Virus record (IMG/VR): IMGVR_UViG_3300033066_001295
Coordinates: 143,817-207,816 of that record
DNA: 64,000 nt
Strand: one strand, 5' to 3'
Origin: a virus
Taxonomy: Duplodnaviria > Caudoviricetes
Both the position numbers and the translations under genes were made by a program. The notes under the pieces were generated by a model, which saw only the letters and a list, made by a program, of their open reading frames with translations, made no database searches and was not told the DNA's origin. Positions 13,963-57,181 of this stretch are shown here, piece after piece. How positions within the stretch are numbered: the stretch's first letter is position 1; every line of letters begins with the position of its first letter.

Positions 13963-14010
13963 ATAAAGTACCCGTTCTGGTGCGCTTCTTTGAGAGGCGT
14001 AACGGGTTTT

Positions 14011-25036: not shown

Positions 25037-25942
25037 TCAAGCTTTTTTGCTATTATCCCACTGCTTGTAGCGTTCACGCTTTTGAGCCGGTGTCATGCCA
25101 GCAAGCTCTTTCTGAACATCGGCATACGCCTTGTTGCCCTGAGCCTTGGCTGCACGCTGTTTGGCGTACTTGGCATCAATATCAGCAAACCCTTTCTTCA
25201 CCCTAGCGTCACGAATGGTCTTGTCAGGGTCCACATACGTGGATGCCTTGGGCTGCTGAAGGGTGGCAGGAACAGCTTGGTTAGACTTGGCACCCCAAGG
25301 GTTGGCCTTGTCCTTCTGAGACTGGAGATAAGCTTGTCCCTGCGGAGTGTTCAAAGTTGCCTGTGACGCTGCGATCTGCTCTGGAGTCCAGTTGGAAGGT
25401 CCGACTGTTGGCTTGGCAGGAGCGGGAGCGGCTACAGGGGCAGGAGCTTGAGCGGCAGGTGTCGGAGCGGCGGCTACTTGGGGTGCCGGAGCGGCAGCAG
25501 GAGCTTGAGCAGCAGGTGCTGGAGTGCCCATAGCCTGAAGCTTGGCAGCAGGAGGTAGAGCAAGAAATGCTTCCGCCTCTTTTTTAACAGAGGCCAATTC
25601 TTGACCTAGCTGCTGATATTTTGGACCCCACTTCTGAACAATGAAATTATTGATGGCGTCAGCCGTTGGACCACCAGCAGGGGCTTGAGCAGCAGGTGCC
25701 GGAGCTTGGGGTGCCGGAGCTTGGGGTGCCGGAGCGGCAGCCGGAGCTTGTGGGGCAGGCTGGTTGGCGTTAGGGTCAACAACATCGTTGTACCCACCTG
25801 TAACATCGTGATATGCGCCAGAAACAGCGTTCCCTACAGCGGAGGCTGCACTACCAATACCTTGGCGAAGTCCACCAGCTAGTTGCCCAGCTTTGCGAAA
25901 GAACCCAGTTCCAGCCTCAAAAAGGTCGATGAACGATGACAT
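25037..25942 (-). CDS. Ala/Pro/Gln-rich protein, probable internal head protein
   Basis: MSSFIDLFEA N-terminus, APQAPA repeats, TATCTATT upstream. Confidence 0.6.
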   Translation of the reverse strand: MSSFIDLFEAGTGFFRKAGQLAGGLRQGIGSAASAVGNAVSGAYHDVTGGYNDVVDPNANQPAPQAPAAAPAPQAPAPQAPAPAAQAPAGGPTADAINNFIVQKWGPKYQQLGQELASVKKEAEAFLALPPAAKLQAMGTPAPAAQAPAAAPAPQVAAAPTPAAQAPAPVAAPAPAKPTVGPSNWTPEQIAASQATLNTPQGQAYLQSQKDKANPWGAKSNQAVPATLQQPKASTYVDPDKTIRDARVKKGFADIDAKYAKQRAAKAQGNKAYADVQKELAGMTPAQKRERYKQWDNSKKA

Positions 25943-25966
25943 ATCAATAGATACTCAAAGAAAGAT

Positions 25967-26097
25967 TTCAAAGGGGAAGGATTTACACCTCCACACCGGT
26001 CTCTGTCAGCACACCGGTAAGCACCTAGTAATTACTTTCGGTAGCCGTAGCACCCTACTCGCTGTACAGTTGTCTTGAGCTTTGCTTTACCTCTGAA
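25967..26097 (-). ncRNA. expanded tRNA-like RNA
   Basis: TTCAGAGG/CCTTTGAA stem, T arm GGAGG-TGTAAAT-CCTTC, small D-like arm, expanded core. Confidence 0.5.
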
Positions 26098-26191
26098 TGG
26101 CGGATGACTGAGGAATCGAACCCCATGCCGGTCTCCCGGACATACTCCACTTTCAAGGCGGCTGCTGGGAACACACCCAACTAAATCATCC
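26098..26191 (-). tRNA. tRNA-Ser(TGA), 8/4 fold with 6-bp D stem
   Basis: GGATGATT/AGTCATCC-G-CCA, loop CT-TGA-AA. Confidence 0.85.
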
Positions 26192-26416
26192 AAAAAATTG
26201 CTTTTGCCGTGCCTCAGCAGGACACGAGCGAGTCCTCACTCAGAGCCACCTTTTGTGGCCCTGTTTACGGTCATAAACATAGCTTCTGCCACAACTACAG
26301 GTAACAGTAGTTCCCTTTTTCACCTTCATACTTATTCATATCAATCAGGCTGGTGAGCAGCCCTTTCTCCATGCCTATTGTGCAAATGGAATGTGGTAGA
26401 GCTAACTTTGCTCTCA

Positions 26417-26470
26417 CTACATTTTGTGCTAACTGCCATGGTGAAGTCCATGAAGAACTGGAAATGGTCC
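26417..26470 (+). pseudogene. HNH endonuclease remnant
   Basis: Translates to ..CANCHGEVHEELEM, similar to the C-terminus of the 18763 HNH; no intact ORF. Confidence 0.5.
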
Positions 26471-26540
26471 GTGTAGTTGGTAACGCTCCAACCTGAAACA
26501 CGCTTATCGGGCGTGCGCTTCTCTTCTCAGCCATACACGG
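26465..26540 (-). tRNA. tRNA-Ile(GAT)
   Basis: CCGTGTA/TACACGG-A-CCA, loop CC-GAT-AA. Confidence 0.85.
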
Positions 26541-26550
26541 TGGAAATGTT

Positions 26551-26655
26551 GCATCCTCAAATCGAATCACCATCCTGTTTACTTCCCTCATGCTGCGAGT
26601 TTCCCCGGAGCACTCTATGGCATCATTTTGCAGTGATGAGTCGATTTGAAGATGC
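26551..26655 (-). ncRNA. unassigned structured RNA
   Basis: GCATCTTCAAATCGA / TCGATTTGAGGATGC closing helix. Confidence 0.5.
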
Positions 26656-26684
26656 CGCTGAATGAGTCCGAAGACCGACGCAGC

Positions 26685-26862
26685 GACATCCAAAAATCTG
26701 TTATTCACTAACGGAACCGAAGTGCCAATCAGTGAATAACAGAAAGCCATGCTATCCACTCCTTTTCGGAGTCGATGCCGCATCAGTGCATTGCGAGTGC
26801 CCTATCAGCGGAGTCGTTCGGGTGATTGTGGCCCACCCTCCATTTGGCCTTTTGGATATGTC
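26685..26862 (-). ncRNA. unassigned structured RNA (first element after the attenuator)
   Basis: GACA(TA)TCCAAAA/TTTTGGATGTC closing stem; internal 13-bp stem TCTGTTATTCACT/AGTGAATAACAGA. Confidence 0.5.
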
Positions 26863-26871
26863 TTGGAAATG

Positions 26872-26901
26872 AAAAACCCTGCTACCTTCCGGTTTGCAGG
26901 G
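26872..26901 (-). terminator. intrinsic terminator (attenuator)
   Basis: CCCTGC-AA-ACC-GGAA-GGT-A-GCAGGG-TTTTT. Confidence 0.8.
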
Positions 26902-26935
26902 CCTCTGAGTTTCGTGTTATAGTGAACACTCTACG

Positions 26936-27028
26936 TCATAGGCCCGCTCCTGAAAACCCGATCACCCTATCGGTGACTGGGTGGCGACTTTCGTTCGCCG
27001 GTTTATAAGATTGTTTCATCGTTAACAT
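26936..27028 (-). CDS. attenuation leader peptide MLTMKQSYKPANESRHPVTDRVIGFSGAGL
   Basis: 30-codon ORF at the predicted +1; its stop region pairs with the 5' arm of the terminator. Confidence 0.7.
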   Translation of the reverse strand: MLTMKQSYKPANESRHPVTDRVIGFSGAGL

Positions 27029-27034
27029 GTGCTC

Positions 27035-27063
27035 AAGATACATAGCAGATGGGGTCTGCGCAA
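27035..27063 (-). promoter_or_regulatory. sigma70-type promoter of the tRNA island
   Basis: TTGCGC-N17-TATCTT with TG nearby and A-tracts upstream. Confidence 0.65.
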
Positions 27064-27094
27064 CATCTTTTTTACATTTTGTCGATTTTTTTCA

Positions 27095-27454
27095 TCAATC
27101 ACCCTTAAATCGTTGATCCTGAGAGGTTTTTTCTGGGCCGTGAACATAGACAAAATTGGCTGACAGTTCGGTTTGGAGGGATTTTCTGGCTGAAACAAGC
27201 TGTTCTTCAGAGAAATTCTCGGTTTCAAGGTCACCACCATCCATGACAAAATGATCAATTGAGCTTGAACCCATGATAATGGCGTCTTCACCATTGACTG
27301 TGTAGAGGACCATCATCGCAGCAGCATAATCAACAGTCGGATTACCTGTATTGATGAAGTACATGCGCTTGTCACGATCAACCCTGTACCCAACTCCAGC
27401 GTAAGTGGCCGGATCACCTTCGTCGTACTTGATGCTAATATGTGCAACTTTCAT
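27095..27454 (-). CDS. hypothetical protein
   Basis: 119-aa ORF in the early operon. Confidence 0.55.
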   Translation of the reverse strand: MKVAHISIKYDEGDPATYAGVGYRVDRDKRMYFINTGNPTVDYAAAMMVLYTVNGEDAIIMGSSSIDHFVMDGGDLETENFSEEQLVSARKSLQTELSANFVYVHGPEKTSQDQRFKGD

Positions 27455-27681
27455 GTTAGTGATGTGGCCAGAACCACGTGCTTTGTCTCTACCACCTGAA
27501 CAGCATGATCATTGCTAAACATGGCCCCACAGCAGTTGCAACCATACATGGAAACGTCATCCCACAGGTCTTTTGAACCACATCGACCACATCGCCCTGT
27601 AAAGTCACCTGTAGCTTCGTTATCAGGATTGTTAGCCTTGATCACCTTCAGCTTGTCCTCTTCTGATAATGTGTCCCACAT
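27451..27681 (-). CDS. small Zn-ribbon protein
   Basis: CGRCGSKDLWDD..YGCNCC. Confidence 0.55.
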   Translation of the reverse strand: MWDTLSEEDKLKVIKANNPDNEATGDFTGRCGRCGSKDLWDDVSMYGCNCCGAMFSNDHAVQVVETKHVVLATSLT

Positions 27682-27682
27682 G

Positions 27683-27985
27683 TTATGCTGAGCACTTGCG
27701 ATTAAGTTCTGTCAGGAACATGCTCCTGATATTCTGGATGTTCTTCTTGAGGTAGGATGTGAACTTCTTCTTGGCTTCTGCCTTTGAAACTTGATCACCT
27801 TGGGAATCAAAAAACCATCTCAAGTTCTTCGAGAAGTACACCTCCTTGGCATCCTCCTTGTTAAAGCCGAAGTCGAAGAGTGCCTTGATGATTTCAATGG
27901 ATACCTCACGGCCACACTTGTCGGCACTATAAGCTCCACTCCACTCCTCTGCGATGTTATCTAGCTCTTTAGTTGTGTTCTTCAT
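27683..27985 (-). CDS. hypothetical protein
   Basis: 100-aa ORF in an operon. Confidence 0.55.
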   Translation of the reverse strand: MKNTTKELDNIAEEWSGAYSADKCGREVSIEIIKALFDFGFNKEDAKEVYFSKNLRWFFDSQGDQVSKAEAKKKFTSYLKKNIQNIRSMFLTELNRKCSA

Positions 27986-28542
27986 ACAAATCTATGTTTC
28001 ACCCAGTTTGAATTTTCCTTTGAAGGTGACGAGTGCTGGCGGATGTACCCAGCACTAAGTCTCTTTGACACAAGACCCTCAACAAGCTTGTTACCGGGCA
28101 CATCCCATTCAGCCCAGAACCTCCTAGCCTCATCTTCAGTCATGCACTGGAGGCGATACACTCCGCGTGGAATGCTTCCAACAAGTGGCAGGTAGGGAAG
28201 GTCATTGAATGCCTCACGACGTTCCAGATAAACTCCTTTGACTGTTGGCACATCAAGCACTATGAGGATGCCCTTGCCTGTGCCACGACGTTCAAGAAAC
28301 TCACAGTCGATCCATTCAAAATCTGGCAGACTATTGATCAACGGGAGCATTTCATTTTCGATTGAAAGTCTTCCCCCATGCCTGTTCCAGCAAGTCCTAT
28401 GGTGAGGTGACACAAGTGCCCTCCAGCCATTGATCTTAACCTCATTAGTCCAGCCGTCACCTTTCGGGTCAGACAGTTCAAACCTACCGCCGTTAATGGG
28501 GCGCATAGGGTAGAAGGAAGGTTCTGAAGGGGCTAGGACCAT
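27982..28542 (-). CDS. minimal ATP-dependent ligase-family nucleotidyltransferase
   Basis: Motif I EVKINGWRA, III WIDCEF, IIIa LIVLDV, IV VEGLVSKR, V WVKHR; no OB domain. Confidence 0.75.
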   Translation of the reverse strand: MVLAPSEPSFYPMRPINGGRFELSDPKGDGWTNEVKINGWRALVSPHHRTCWNRHGGRLSIENEMLPLINSLPDFEWIDCEFLERRGTGKGILIVLDVPTVKGVYLERREAFNDLPYLPLVGSIPRGVYRLQCMTEDEARRFWAEWDVPGNKLVEGLVSKRLSAGYIRQHSSPSKENSNWVKHRFV

Positions 28543-28555
28543 ATGATGTCGTACT

Positions 28556-28873
28556 TCATGAAAAATAACGAGAAACAGTTTCGTGGTCCATGCCATCTGT
28601 GAAAATCCAACGAAATCCACCACGCTTTTGCAATTGGCACCACCAACCACCACGTCCGCTGAAGGATAGTCTGAGATTAGGGTTATCCTTGGCAAGGTAT
28701 GACAGGGCGAGAAATTTTCGCCTTCTTGCCTGAACTTCAGGGTGCTCAGTAGCCTTGCGCAGAGCGTCACCAATCTTGAGCTTCGGCTTTGGGTCTTCTC
28801 CAGACATAGCTCTGCTCAAAGAGGTTAAAGACTCCTGAAGCTTGCTAACAAGCTGTGTTGTTTCAGGACTCAC
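28556..28873 (-). CDS. hypothetical protein
   Basis: 105-aa ORF. Confidence 0.5.
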   Translation of the reverse strand: MSPETTQLVSKLQESLTSLSRAMSGEDPKPKLKIGDALRKATEHPEVQARRRKFLALSYLAKDNPNLRLSFSGRGGWWCQLQKRGGFRWIFTDGMDHETVSRYFS

Positions 28874-29088
28874 AGCACCTCCCCTTTCTCAGAGATTTTA
28901 CCTGAGTTGATCAGGTCTCGGGCAGTGCGGCCATACCAGCCCTGAAGGCTCCACACTTCACCTGTTTTGATCAGGTACGCCCATGCTTCCAGTTGATCCT
29001 CCTCAGAGGCACCTTCGCCTTCACAGAAGCCTTCAGCGTAAGCACAGGCGAGGTATGAATTCCACTTGATCTTTGTTGGTGTGCTCAT
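28870..29088 (-). CDS. conserved-looking small phage protein
   Basis: EAWAYLIKTGEVWSLQGWYGRTARDLI. Confidence 0.6.
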   Translation of the reverse strand: MSTPTKIKWNSYLACAYAEGFCEGEGASEEDQLEAWAYLIKTGEVWSLQGWYGRTARDLINSGKISEKGEVL

Positions 29089-29092
29089 GGTA

Positions 29093-29350
29093 TTAGCAGA
29101 CTGGGATGAGTTCTCCTTCACCGGCTTCTCTCAGCCAGAAATTGCCACAAGACATGCCACTGATTGGAAACAGGAGGCTCTTGTCCTTCTCATTCCGCAA
29201 CAGCCGCCATGTCTTGCCACGACCATTCTGAGGGGTGAGGATATAAGGTGCCTGCAAGTCGGCATCCTCCGGTTTGACAGGCTCAACGGTGACGTTGTAC
29301 GCCTTGCCGTTGATGATGATGTTGGTTGTAGCTGGGGCTGTTGTTGGCAT
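29093..29350 (-). CDS. hypothetical protein
   Basis: 85-aa ORF. Confidence 0.5.
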   Translation of the reverse strand: MPTTAPATTNIIINGKAYNVTVEPVKPEDADLQAPYILTPQNGRGKTWRLLRNEKDKSLLFPISGMSCGNFWLREAGEGELIPVC

Positions 29351-29416
29351 AAAAGTTGGGGAAGAATGTTGAAAAAGATTGGGGCTGGTCCCACCACGAG
29401 ACCAGCCCCGGCACCA

Positions 29417-30004
29417 CTACTTCACTCCCGCCGTAGCAGGGAATGTGAAGACCTCATTGAGGGCAGTTGCCTCCTCAACAGAAAGGGCAGTGAAAAGCTC
29501 ACGCACACCGATAGGGACGAAGTCTTCCTTGGAAGTGAGAGCTTCGGAAACACCATACTTGGTGAAAAGCTCGACAAGGTCATTGACCAGCTTGCCAGTC
29601 TTGGCCACACCGATTTTCTCAGTGAGAACATCACCATCAACCTTGAGGTTAAAACGCTGACGGAACAGCTTGTCAGTGTTCTTCTTGCCGATGGCTTCCT
29701 CAACTTGTTTGAGGTCGGCACCGCTCTTGTAGGCGGCGGTATAAACAACGAGAACAGAACCCGTGTCGCCAACGGCTGACACACCGAGTTCGTCACTGCC
29801 ATCCTTGATATGCTGGGCGGCGACGGGGAAAACTTCCTCCTTCAATTCGTCCTTGTAACGCTTCACCTCGCCTTCCAAGACCTTGATCTGACGATCCTTG
29901 TCAACGATCTTGTTGACGAGCGAACGATTGCCATCAAAAACCGGGTAATCCTTGCCCTTTTTGGTGGAAGACTTTGCGACGGAACCGAGTGGGACTGTTT
30001 TCAT
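29417..30004 (-). CDS. early protein with coiled coil
   Basis: 195 aa, directly behind an early promoter. Confidence 0.6.
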   Translation of the reverse strand: MKTVPLGSVAKSSTKKGKDYPVFDGNRSLVNKIVDKDRQIKVLEGEVKRYKDELKEEVFPVAAQHIKDGSDELGVSAVGDTGSVLVVYTAAYKSGADLKQVEEAIGKKNTDKLFRQRFNLKVDGDVLTEKIGVAKTGKLVNDLVELFTKYGVSEALTSKEDFVPIGVRELFTALSVEEATALNEVFTFPATAGVK

Positions 30005-56930: not shown

Positions 56931-56958
56931 TTGACAGATGACTGACTTTCGATATAGT
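56931..56958 (+). promoter_or_regulatory. sigma70-type early promoter with conserved spacer
   Basis: TTGACA-gatgactgactttcga-TATAGT. Confidence 0.75.
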
Positions 56959-56965
56959 AAGCCCC

Positions 56966-57181
56966 ATGACGAACCTCACGCAAGCTACCGAATCGCTCAG
57001 CAAGTCAACCGCTGCAAAGCCATGAGTTCTTGTTCGCTACCTTGGCGGCTACGGAATCAAGAGGCTGGTGGTCACACCTGACAGTAAATTCGCGCAGATT
57101 GACCCGATCAACATCAACGCTGGCAGAGCACTCATCAAGAAAGGTCACGTCGTACACCCAGAAAACACTTGGGTCTGGTAA
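56966..57181 (+). pseudogene. early ORF interrupted by one in-frame TGA
   Basis: MTNLTQATESLSKSTAAKP*VLVRYLGGYGIKRL..WVW. Confidence 0.5.

Follow-up and report, generated by a model that had tools for sequence, protein, structure and literature searches.

The analyzed stretch of DNA (hereafter, the window) comprises the last 64 kb of a 207.8-kb IMG/VR record from an uncultured phage, which is 94% complete and has a G+C content of 47.5%. The minus strand of the window carries an island of RNA genes, in which ARAGORN identified 22 transfer RNAs (tRNAs) at the default threshold and 35 tRNAs, from position 26540 down to 4676, at a slightly relaxed one; Rfam adds further tRNA matches. A gap of 311 nucleotides (nt) separates this island from the stop codon (27095) of a gene for a protein of 119 amino acids (aa), and in this gap we located the subject of the present study, a candidate leader unit. 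The unit includes a promoter, an open reading frame (ORF) of 30 codons, and a series of hairpins, the last of which belongs to a predicted intrinsic terminator (Table 1). The genes upstream of the gap (27095-30004) and all of the tRNAs lie on the minus strand, as does the leader unit.

An earlier interpretation made from the DNA letters alone (the sequence-only reading) had described a promoter TTGCGC-N17-TATCTT, an ATG at 27028, and a 30-codon ORF with 27 distinct codons for 18 amino acids; a letter-by-letter comparison with the minus strand recovered these elements exactly. The leader has no paralogue elsewhere in the phage genome. In a search of the intergenic DNA of this genome for a second combination of a promoter, a short leaderless ORF and a terminator, the leader unit was the sole case.

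For comparative analysis we used the neighbouring 119-aa protein as a query and obtained two related lineages with 87% amino-acid identity and with contigs covering the region. The first lineage is represented by L003, L004, L005, and L006 (the L003 lineage) and the second one by L007, the window being the third lineage in all comparisons below. The region 27028-26560 differs from the window by 0.85% in L003 and by 3.6% in L007, whereas the flanking genes differ by 7-9%. The contigs of a more divergent relative in the riverine run X10 do not span 26870-27193. Run X20, labelled as RNA-Seq, contained only a 193-nt contig (26629-26820), which was rated as probably DNA and not used as evidence. 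No useful relative was found among GenBank phages (megablast, blastn, and tblastn). Three protein queries and two DNA patterns against IMG/VR gave one match, L002, a high-GC phage without synteny, and the JGI metagenome contigs yielded nothing useful with either an alignment of the leader peptide or a 20-mer of the terminator arm. More distant proteins with 40-48% identity to the 119-aa protein showed no synteny, and homologues of a spurious 162-aa ORF and of a 301-aa protein from the downstream region provided no new contig reaching the leader.

Table 1. Features of the candidate leader unit, the RNA genes behind it, and the phage promoter family (window positions)
Feature	Position	Strand	Remarks
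A-rich block resembling an UP element	27064-27094	-	Between the stop codon of the 119-aa gene (27095) and the -35 hexamer; invariant in all 5 relatives covering it
-35-like hexamer, TTGCGC	27058-27063	-	Invariant in relatives
-10-like hexamer, TATCTT	27035-27040	-	TATATT in the L003 lineage (toward consensus)
Predicted leaderless 30-codon ORF, MLTMKQSYKPANESRHPVTDRVIGFSGAGL + TGA	26936-27028	-	Kept in L003, L004, L005, and L007
Hairpin H1 within the ORF	26983-26999	-	GNRA loop GAAA; compensatory A-U to G-C change in L007, where the loop is GAGA, still GNRA
Hairpin H2 within the ORF	26956-26982	-	Compensatory C-G to U-A change; apical stem lengthened by a 6-nt insertion in L007
Predicted antiterminator hairpin H3	26896-26947	-	-21 kcal/mol; in each of the three lineages, part of the minimum free energy (MFE) fold predicted for the naked transcript
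Predicted intrinsic terminator	26872-26901	-	25-nt hairpin 26901-26877, -13.4 kcal/mol, plus UUUUU 26876-26872
Conserved structured RNA	26687-26860	-	First product behind the terminator; z -4.1 to -6.6; long closing helix
tRNA-Ile(GAU)	26465-26540	-	First downstream tRNA; ARAGORN, relaxed threshold only
tRNA-Ser(UGA)	26098-26191	-	First tRNA at the default threshold; ARAGORN
Examples of the promoter family	20127-20099, 12633-12606, 7459-7432, 4656-4629	-	Genome-wide scan
Example of the promoter family	56931-56958	+	Genome-wide scan

Competing hairpins, promoter and leader reading frame

The transcript from 27028 to 26860 folds at -58.4 kcal/mol with a z-score of -4.8, and its 5' and 3' ends can pair. 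Within it, the competition between hairpin H3 and the terminator is strongly non-random. The last codons of the ORF and the stop codon are part of the 5' arm of H3, whereas the 3' arm of H3 shares nucleotides with the 5' arm of the terminator. In the MFE fold, GCGGGCCUAUGA (26947-26936) pairs with UCAGAGGCCCUGC (26908-26896), which is the very pairing that the sequence-only reading had set against a terminator at 26872-26901; both structures are where it placed them. H3 and the terminator hairpin (CCCUGC-A-ACC-GGAA-GGU-A-GCAGGG) both use GAGGCCCUGC and are thus mutually exclusive. The equilibrium probability of the native terminator in the naked RNA is 4e-4. Upon shuffling of the upstream 119 nt, the terminator appeared in the MFE fold of 94% of 500 shuffles, and its probability was as low as the native value in 0 of 200.

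The ribosome was modelled as a 30-nt mask on the transcript fold. With the mask on the stop codon, codon 25, or codon 29, the full terminator reappeared in silico, while H3 persisted under masks at codons 5, 10, 20, and 22. The masked transcript of L007 behaved in the same way despite its insertion. Thus the folds with and without a ribosome mask follow the pattern expected from the sequence-only reading, with the terminator under a mask at the stop codon and H3 under an early mask, two masks being borderline (see below).

The leader promoter is followed by the ATG at 27028 after 6 nt (5 nt in L003). A genome-wide scan with the pattern TTGACN-N16-18-TAnnnT revealed a sigma-70-like promoter family of the phage, TTGAC(A/G)-N16-18-TA(T/G)nnT, many members of which have the spacer motif CTGACTTTCGA in common and carry an A-rich block upstream; blocks similar to that at 27064-27094 precede strong promoters of the phage. 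At 28 of the 45 strong sites, an ORF of 46-714 codons begins with an ATG located 5-9 nt (mode 7) past the -10 hexamer, and the number of such promoter-ATG pairs that would arise by chance is estimated at fewer than one. Since, in addition, the genes of the phage have no Shine-Dalgarno sequences, we take its promoter-proximal genes to be leaderless as a rule. The 6-nt spacing between the -10 hexamer of the leader and its ATG, the predicted +1, falls within the range of the 28 leaderless pairs. In the L003 lineage the -35 hexamer is unchanged, the 28 nt of spacer and discriminator have accumulated 11 changes, of which 9 are substitutions and 2 are deletions of a single base, and the conserved block starts sharply at the ATG. 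The placement of +1 on this ATG by the sequence-only reading thus fits the genome-wide leaderless architecture, with hexamers that are conserved while the spacer diverges. The chance that an ATG exactly at the predicted +1 opens 30 codons is about 2% by our estimate. Leaderless messenger RNAs without Shine-Dalgarno sequences matter for the annotation of such genomes and for guessing the host.

Three other candidates in the promoter region were rejected. An ATG at 27043 was ruled out as the start because a single-base deletion frameshifts it in L003, L003 also fails to preserve a hairpin of the promoter spacer (27059-27045), and the Bacteroidota-type promoter (TAnnTTTG) is not enriched in the phage genome.

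The leader ORF is kept in both related lineages, as the sequence-only reading had required of homologous loci, and its substitutions look like those of a coding sequence. The only change in the leader peptide of L003, L004, and L005 is K5R. The L007 peptide differs by K9N, N12S, and two residues inserted by the in-frame 6-nt insertion. Between the window and L007, the ORF has 1, 1, and 7 changes at the first, second, and third codon positions, respectively, of which 7 are synonymous and 2 non-synonymous (by an alternative count, 9-10 substitutions in total and 2-3 non-synonymous), and the third-position divergence in the ORF (23%) is close to that in the flanking 119-aa gene (22.5%). Together with the leaderless context, this pattern suggests that the ORF may be translated. 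The amino-acid-sparing changes also hint at a role of the peptide sequence itself; the peptide matches no Pfam or PHROG family. H3 and the terminator are nearly invariant and contain no covarying antiterminator pairs, such as the sequence-only reading had proposed to look for, the only change in H3 being A to G at 26910, which converts a U-A pair to U-G, and the only change in the terminator being a 1-nt insertion in the loop in L007, with the stems invariant. It is H1 and H2 that carry compensatory changes (Table 1), and beyond these compensatory pairs two changes in the alignment of the relatives retain pairs as G-U. The leader region therefore seems to be under constraint at the RNA level and the codon level together.

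The codons that occur twice in the leader ORF are ATG, AAA, and GCG, and none occurs more often. Among the stop-free 30-codon windows of the genome, 1.4% contain at least 27 distinct codons; the share is 1.8% for the intergenic windows, and 3 of the 84 ATG ORFs with exactly this length reach this number. The background is about 22 distinct codons and 14 amino acids per 30 codons. The presence of 18 amino acids in 30 codons is matched by 1.4-1.9% of windows, a figure that is not independent of the codon diversity. The leaders of both the window and L007 use 18 of the 20 amino acids (no Cys and no Trp), which three lineages are too few to attribute to selection, and L007 has 28 distinct codons out of 32. 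The leader is also rich in rare codons: the mean natural logarithm of its relative synonymous codon usage (RSCU) is -0.24, which is below all gene windows and below 99.4-99.8% of non-coding windows of the phage. Such a low value could mean that rare codons are used deliberately or, equally, that RNA structure was the main influence on the sequence.

A proposed mechanism and its alternatives

On balance, we consider that the leader unit, which lies at the 5' edge of the phage RNA-gene region, probably functions as a ribosome-dependent transcription attenuator. In this scheme, which is built on sequence and modelled folds, the sigma-70-type promoter (27063-27035) would start transcription at or next to the A of the ATG at 27028 and produce a leaderless messenger RNA, the 30 codons of which would be translated while RNA polymerase moves on. 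If no ribosome were present at the end of the ORF, H3 (26947-26896) would form first and sequester the 5' arm of the terminator, and the polymerase would then read into the structured RNA (26860-26687), tRNA-Ile, tRNA-Ser, and beyond. A ribosome at the last codons or at the stop codon would cover the 5' arm of H3, allowing the terminator to form, and the transcript would end at about 26872. Thus fast and complete translation would mean stop, and slow, stalled, or absent translation over approximately codons 1-22 would mean go. Four points of the scheme are inferred from the predicted elements: where transcription starts, that the ORF is translated, that transcripts terminate in vivo, and which physiological signal is sensed. 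The claim of the sequence-only reading that a stall at any depleted or cleaved tRNA induces readthrough holds in this scheme for early stalls, which keep H3; stalls at codons 25-30 would favour termination.

Several observations weigh against the proposed attenuator. No RNA run is listed as containing the stretch of the leader unit. The -35 hexamer is poor, with 3 of 6 matches to TTGACA. There is no terminator between the upstream operon and the leader unit, and readthrough transcripts from upstream, in which the leader ORF is not 5'-terminal, may occur. Masking of codon 15 in the window and of codon 20 in L003 gave the terminator, the alternative folds being close in energy. Since H3 and the terminator are almost invariant over only three lineages, the switch has no covariation support and is backed by energetics instead. 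A bare attenuator would require neither conserved hairpins H1 and H2 nor changes that spare amino acids, and both features point to a possible role for the RNA or the peptide as such. The coding pattern has its own caveats. The excess of third-position changes, with P of about 0.003-0.02 by a binomial estimate that varies with the alignment of the insertion, is derived from 9-10 substitutions, and one antisense frame has the same third-position pattern. The ORF of the L003 lineage has zero synonymous changes, though the neighbouring gene differs at 18% of third positions, and such near-identity fits RNA constraint or recombination as well as coding.

A plus-strand ORF of 60 aa (26826-27008) was considered as well and rejected, as the 1-nt insertion in the terminator loop breaks it in L007: its N-terminal part is frameshifted there, while the C-terminal part stays open and shares the third positions. 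No promoter-like site was found upstream of this ORF.

The alternative that survives best is an ordinary small-protein gene, in which the leaderless ORF encodes a functional 30-aa peptide and the hairpin with its U-tract is a constitutive terminator with no regulated readthrough. The surplus of synonymous over non-synonymous changes, an indel of whole codons, and a promoter and leaderless geometry identical to those of real genes of the phage all agree with this explanation, and a stop codon 35 nt before a terminator is seen in many genes. However, this stop codon is located inside the competing hairpin, and the sequence upstream keeps the terminator from forming to a degree well above that of shuffled sequences, an arrangement not expected for a plain terminator. 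Moreover, no gene window of the phage has a codon usage like that of the leader, the peptide is without a family match, and the conserved RNA and tRNAs behind the terminator would have no strong promoter of their own before 20127. We therefore regard a simple small-protein gene as improbable.

A somewhat lower probability is assigned to a non-coding structured RNA in which the ORF is incidental, either a stable small RNA with its 3' end at the terminator or a leader switched by a protein, ligand, or RNA that binds H1 and H2. The strong fold with ends that can pair, the compensatory changes in H1 and H2 with the GNRA loop kept, the near-identity of the L003 lineage in nucleotides (as in the neighbouring RNA genes), and the non-coding look of the codon usage are what such an RNA would be expected to show. 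On the other hand, it does not explain the ATG placed exactly at the predicted +1, nor the 7 third-position changes among the 9-10 substitutions, the in-frame indel, and a third-position divergence equal to that of the flanking gene. In addition, at E up to 5, no Rfam family matched 25900-27300, and the families searched include known leaders, riboswitches, and the T-box.

The attenuator as proposed above leaves room for different signals. A general sensor of translation capacity is plausible; the signal is likely to be general decoding capacity, i.e. the supply of tRNA, amino acids, or ribosomes, and the rare codons of the leader perhaps sharpen it. The bolder form of this idea, that the phage gauges the overall decoding capacity of the cell with a leaderless, rare-codon-rich, and amino-acid-diverse test ORF and turns on structured RNAs and tRNA genes when ribosomes lag, seems unlikely to us as a whole, if slightly less so than the small-protein gene. 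The sequence-only reading had gone further and proposed a pan-tRNA codon sampler, with a leader built for maximal codon variety, so that depletion or cleavage of any tRNA would induce the phage tRNA and small-RNA genes. Codon and amino-acid diversity in the top 1.4-3.6%, the similar diversity in L007, and an ORF rich in rare codons in front of tRNA genes speak for such a sampler. Yet the diversity, which does exceed that of typical 30-codon windows, is only mildly unusual and is a post-hoc statistic. In L007, two of the synonymous changes result in codons that occur twice (Gly GGA/GGA/GGC and AGC twice), therefore the switching between synonymous codons is not visibly maintained. The leader codons match the phage tRNAs at chance level, both for the first block of tRNAs (16 of 30; null expectation 14.5, P 0.38) and for the whole island (25 of 30; null expectation 24.5, P 0.52). 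Codons 25-30 could not signal readthrough, the substitutions preserve amino acids that a pure sampler would not need, and the link to anticodon nucleases is conjectural. The codon sampler thus fared poorly, and we consider it as doubtful as the non-coding RNA; the same low weight goes to any pan-tRNA sensor built for the purpose.

The usual explanations of phage tRNA genes present them as helpers in codon usage or as replacements for tRNAs destroyed by host defences, and to our knowledge hardly anything is known about the control of their expression. A limited literature search found no paper on leader-peptide attenuation of tRNA or small-RNA genes. If the unit works as predicted, the speed of translation sets the output of a phage RNA-gene module, in a simple form of feedback. 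Should the bolder form be true, the tRNA genes would be under feedback control by translation, for example when host defences cut tRNAs or when the codon demand of the phage outruns the tRNA supply of the host.

Downstream RNA genes and other genomic features

The first product behind the terminator is the conserved structured RNA, followed by tRNA-Ile, tRNA-Ser, a gene for a 301-aa protein, an HNH endonuclease gene, and about 15 more tRNAs. The closing helix of the structured RNA is formed by AUAUCCAAAAGGCC with ...AUUUUUGGAU, and a 14-bp hairpin within it has a compensatory U-A to C-G change in L007. In a relative with genes that diverge by 4-13%, a single difference was seen over 209 nt in this RNA, and Rfam gave no match for 26687-26860. 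No other strong minus-strand promoter is present between 30065 and 20127. As strong promoters restart transcription from 20127 on, at most the first third of the island would depend on the leader unit. The gating of the tRNA island, as originally proposed, is putative.

L007 has an 18-nt tandem duplication in a hairpin next to the structured RNA (~26680) and is without 26128-26523 altogether. A comparison of the window (26251-26422) with L003 (7253-7425) and L004 (5589-5761) revealed that in these two genomes an 85-nt piece (26251-26335) is inverted, being 100% identical on the other strand, and that approximately 225-310 nt are inserted beside it, just upstream of tRNA-Ser. The 10-mer TTTTTGGATG occurs twice on the minus strand (0.23 expected), at the 5' end of tRNA-Ser (26187-26196) and at the 3' end of the structured RNA (26687-26696), and may be a shared processing or junction motif. 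The minus-strand ORF of 162 aa at 26295-26783, called as a 141-aa gene in L003, overlies the structured RNA as well as tRNA-Ile; with no family match and a single relative in the databases, it is probably not a gene. Further inside the tRNA island, Rfam reports an abiF RNA at 13970-14006 (minus strand) with 37.9 bits, the gathering score being 37 bits.

Within the upstream operon, a strong G+C-rich hairpin of 13 bp with a T-run follows the gene for a 195-aa protein (29381-29409, minus strand) and is a likely intrinsic terminator; such terminators are therefore seemingly in use by the phage. The minus-strand ORF at 27982-28773 (186 aa as called in relatives) is the most divergent gene among the relatives (86% DNA identity). 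It contains EVKINGWRAL, which we take to resemble motif I (KxDG) of ATP-dependent ligases, and gave no Pfam or PHROG match and no phage match by tblastn. Outside the window, an open frame of 507 aa on the minus strand (G000:C1:131190-131933) matches TROVE (Ro60) above the Pfam cut-off, and on this basis the phage is predicted to encode a Ro60-like protein; an RtcB ligase was not found encoded in the phage genome. On the plus strand, no long gene lies behind the strong consensus promoter at 56931-56958; in its place are two ORFs of 19 codons each (56966-57082), which overlap and are joined at ATGA, and no terminator was found after them.

Comparison with known attenuators

The leader peptides of the amino acid operons (trpL, hisL, leuL, pheL, thrL, and ilvL) share with the phage leader a promoter, a short leader, mutually exclusive antiterminator and terminator hairpins, and a decision that depends on the position of the ribosome. 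Leaders of the trpL/hisL type have runs of one or few regulatory codons, in contrast to the phage leader, in which no codon is used more than twice. The predicted outcome without translation is also opposite. In trpL-type leaders the 1:2 pairing makes the absence of translation lead to termination, whereas the phage leader would give readthrough, because H1 and H2 do not compete with H3. In the Rfam search of 25900-27300 (E up to 5), the amino-acid leader families gave no match, and neither T-box nor riboswitch families matched the phage leader at the gathering score or at E up to 5.

A closer precedent for a mixed codon content is the upstream ORF (uORF) of whiB7 (wblC) in mycobacteria, where a stall in a short ORF before a terminator results in antitermination (PMC10274678). 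This uORF responds to the loss of many amino-acid biosynthesis genes, tRNAs, and synthetases, in a manner set by its coding sequence (PMC10274678). One leader can thus report a shortage of many amino acids, tRNAs, and synthetases, which counts in favour of a codon sampler. Both leaders consist of a short ORF before a terminator and lack a run of a single regulatory codon. The whiB7 uORF, however, is bacterial and alanine-enriched, controls the gene of a transcription factor rather than RNA genes, and has no sequence similarity to the phage leader, the phage side of the comparison being known from sequence and predicted folds.

Two further ribosome-mediated attenuators report general translation trouble, as proposed here for the phage leader. 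Rare codons in the leader of bmrB-bmrCD from Bacillus subtilis raise readthrough (PMC4191407). In PA5471.1-armZ of Pseudomonas aeruginosa, downstream expression rises when the leader is deleted or carries an early amber codon, and PA5471.1 also responds to a defect of the tRNA 3' end (CCA) (PMC13041342). The default-on logic of PA5471.1 is the one predicted for the phage leader, and bmrB and the whiB7 uORF follow it too. Unlike the phage leader, both systems are induced by antibiotics that target the ribosome, control efflux genes, and have ribosome-binding sites instead of a 5'-terminal AUG. They are neither from phages nor located before tRNA genes, and the phage leader is both. Together with the whiB7 uORF, these leaders make the statement of the sequence-only reading that known leaders repeat one codon too strong, since they do not always do so.

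A leaderless sensing ORF also has a counterpart. In the polycysteine short ORFs of mycobacteria, ribosome pausing in a leaderless ORF at the 5' end controls the downstream genes (10.1101/834739). The sensing ORF is at the 5' end of the transcript in both cases, by prediction in the phage. In the polycysteine ORFs, a single amino acid is sensed and the control is exerted on translation, through the exposure of a ribosome-binding site, in contrast to the phage leader with its putative intrinsic terminator and mixed codon set (10.1101/834739). What is new in the proposed attenuator is its placement at the head of a phage RNA-gene island and on a transcript predicted to be leaderless.

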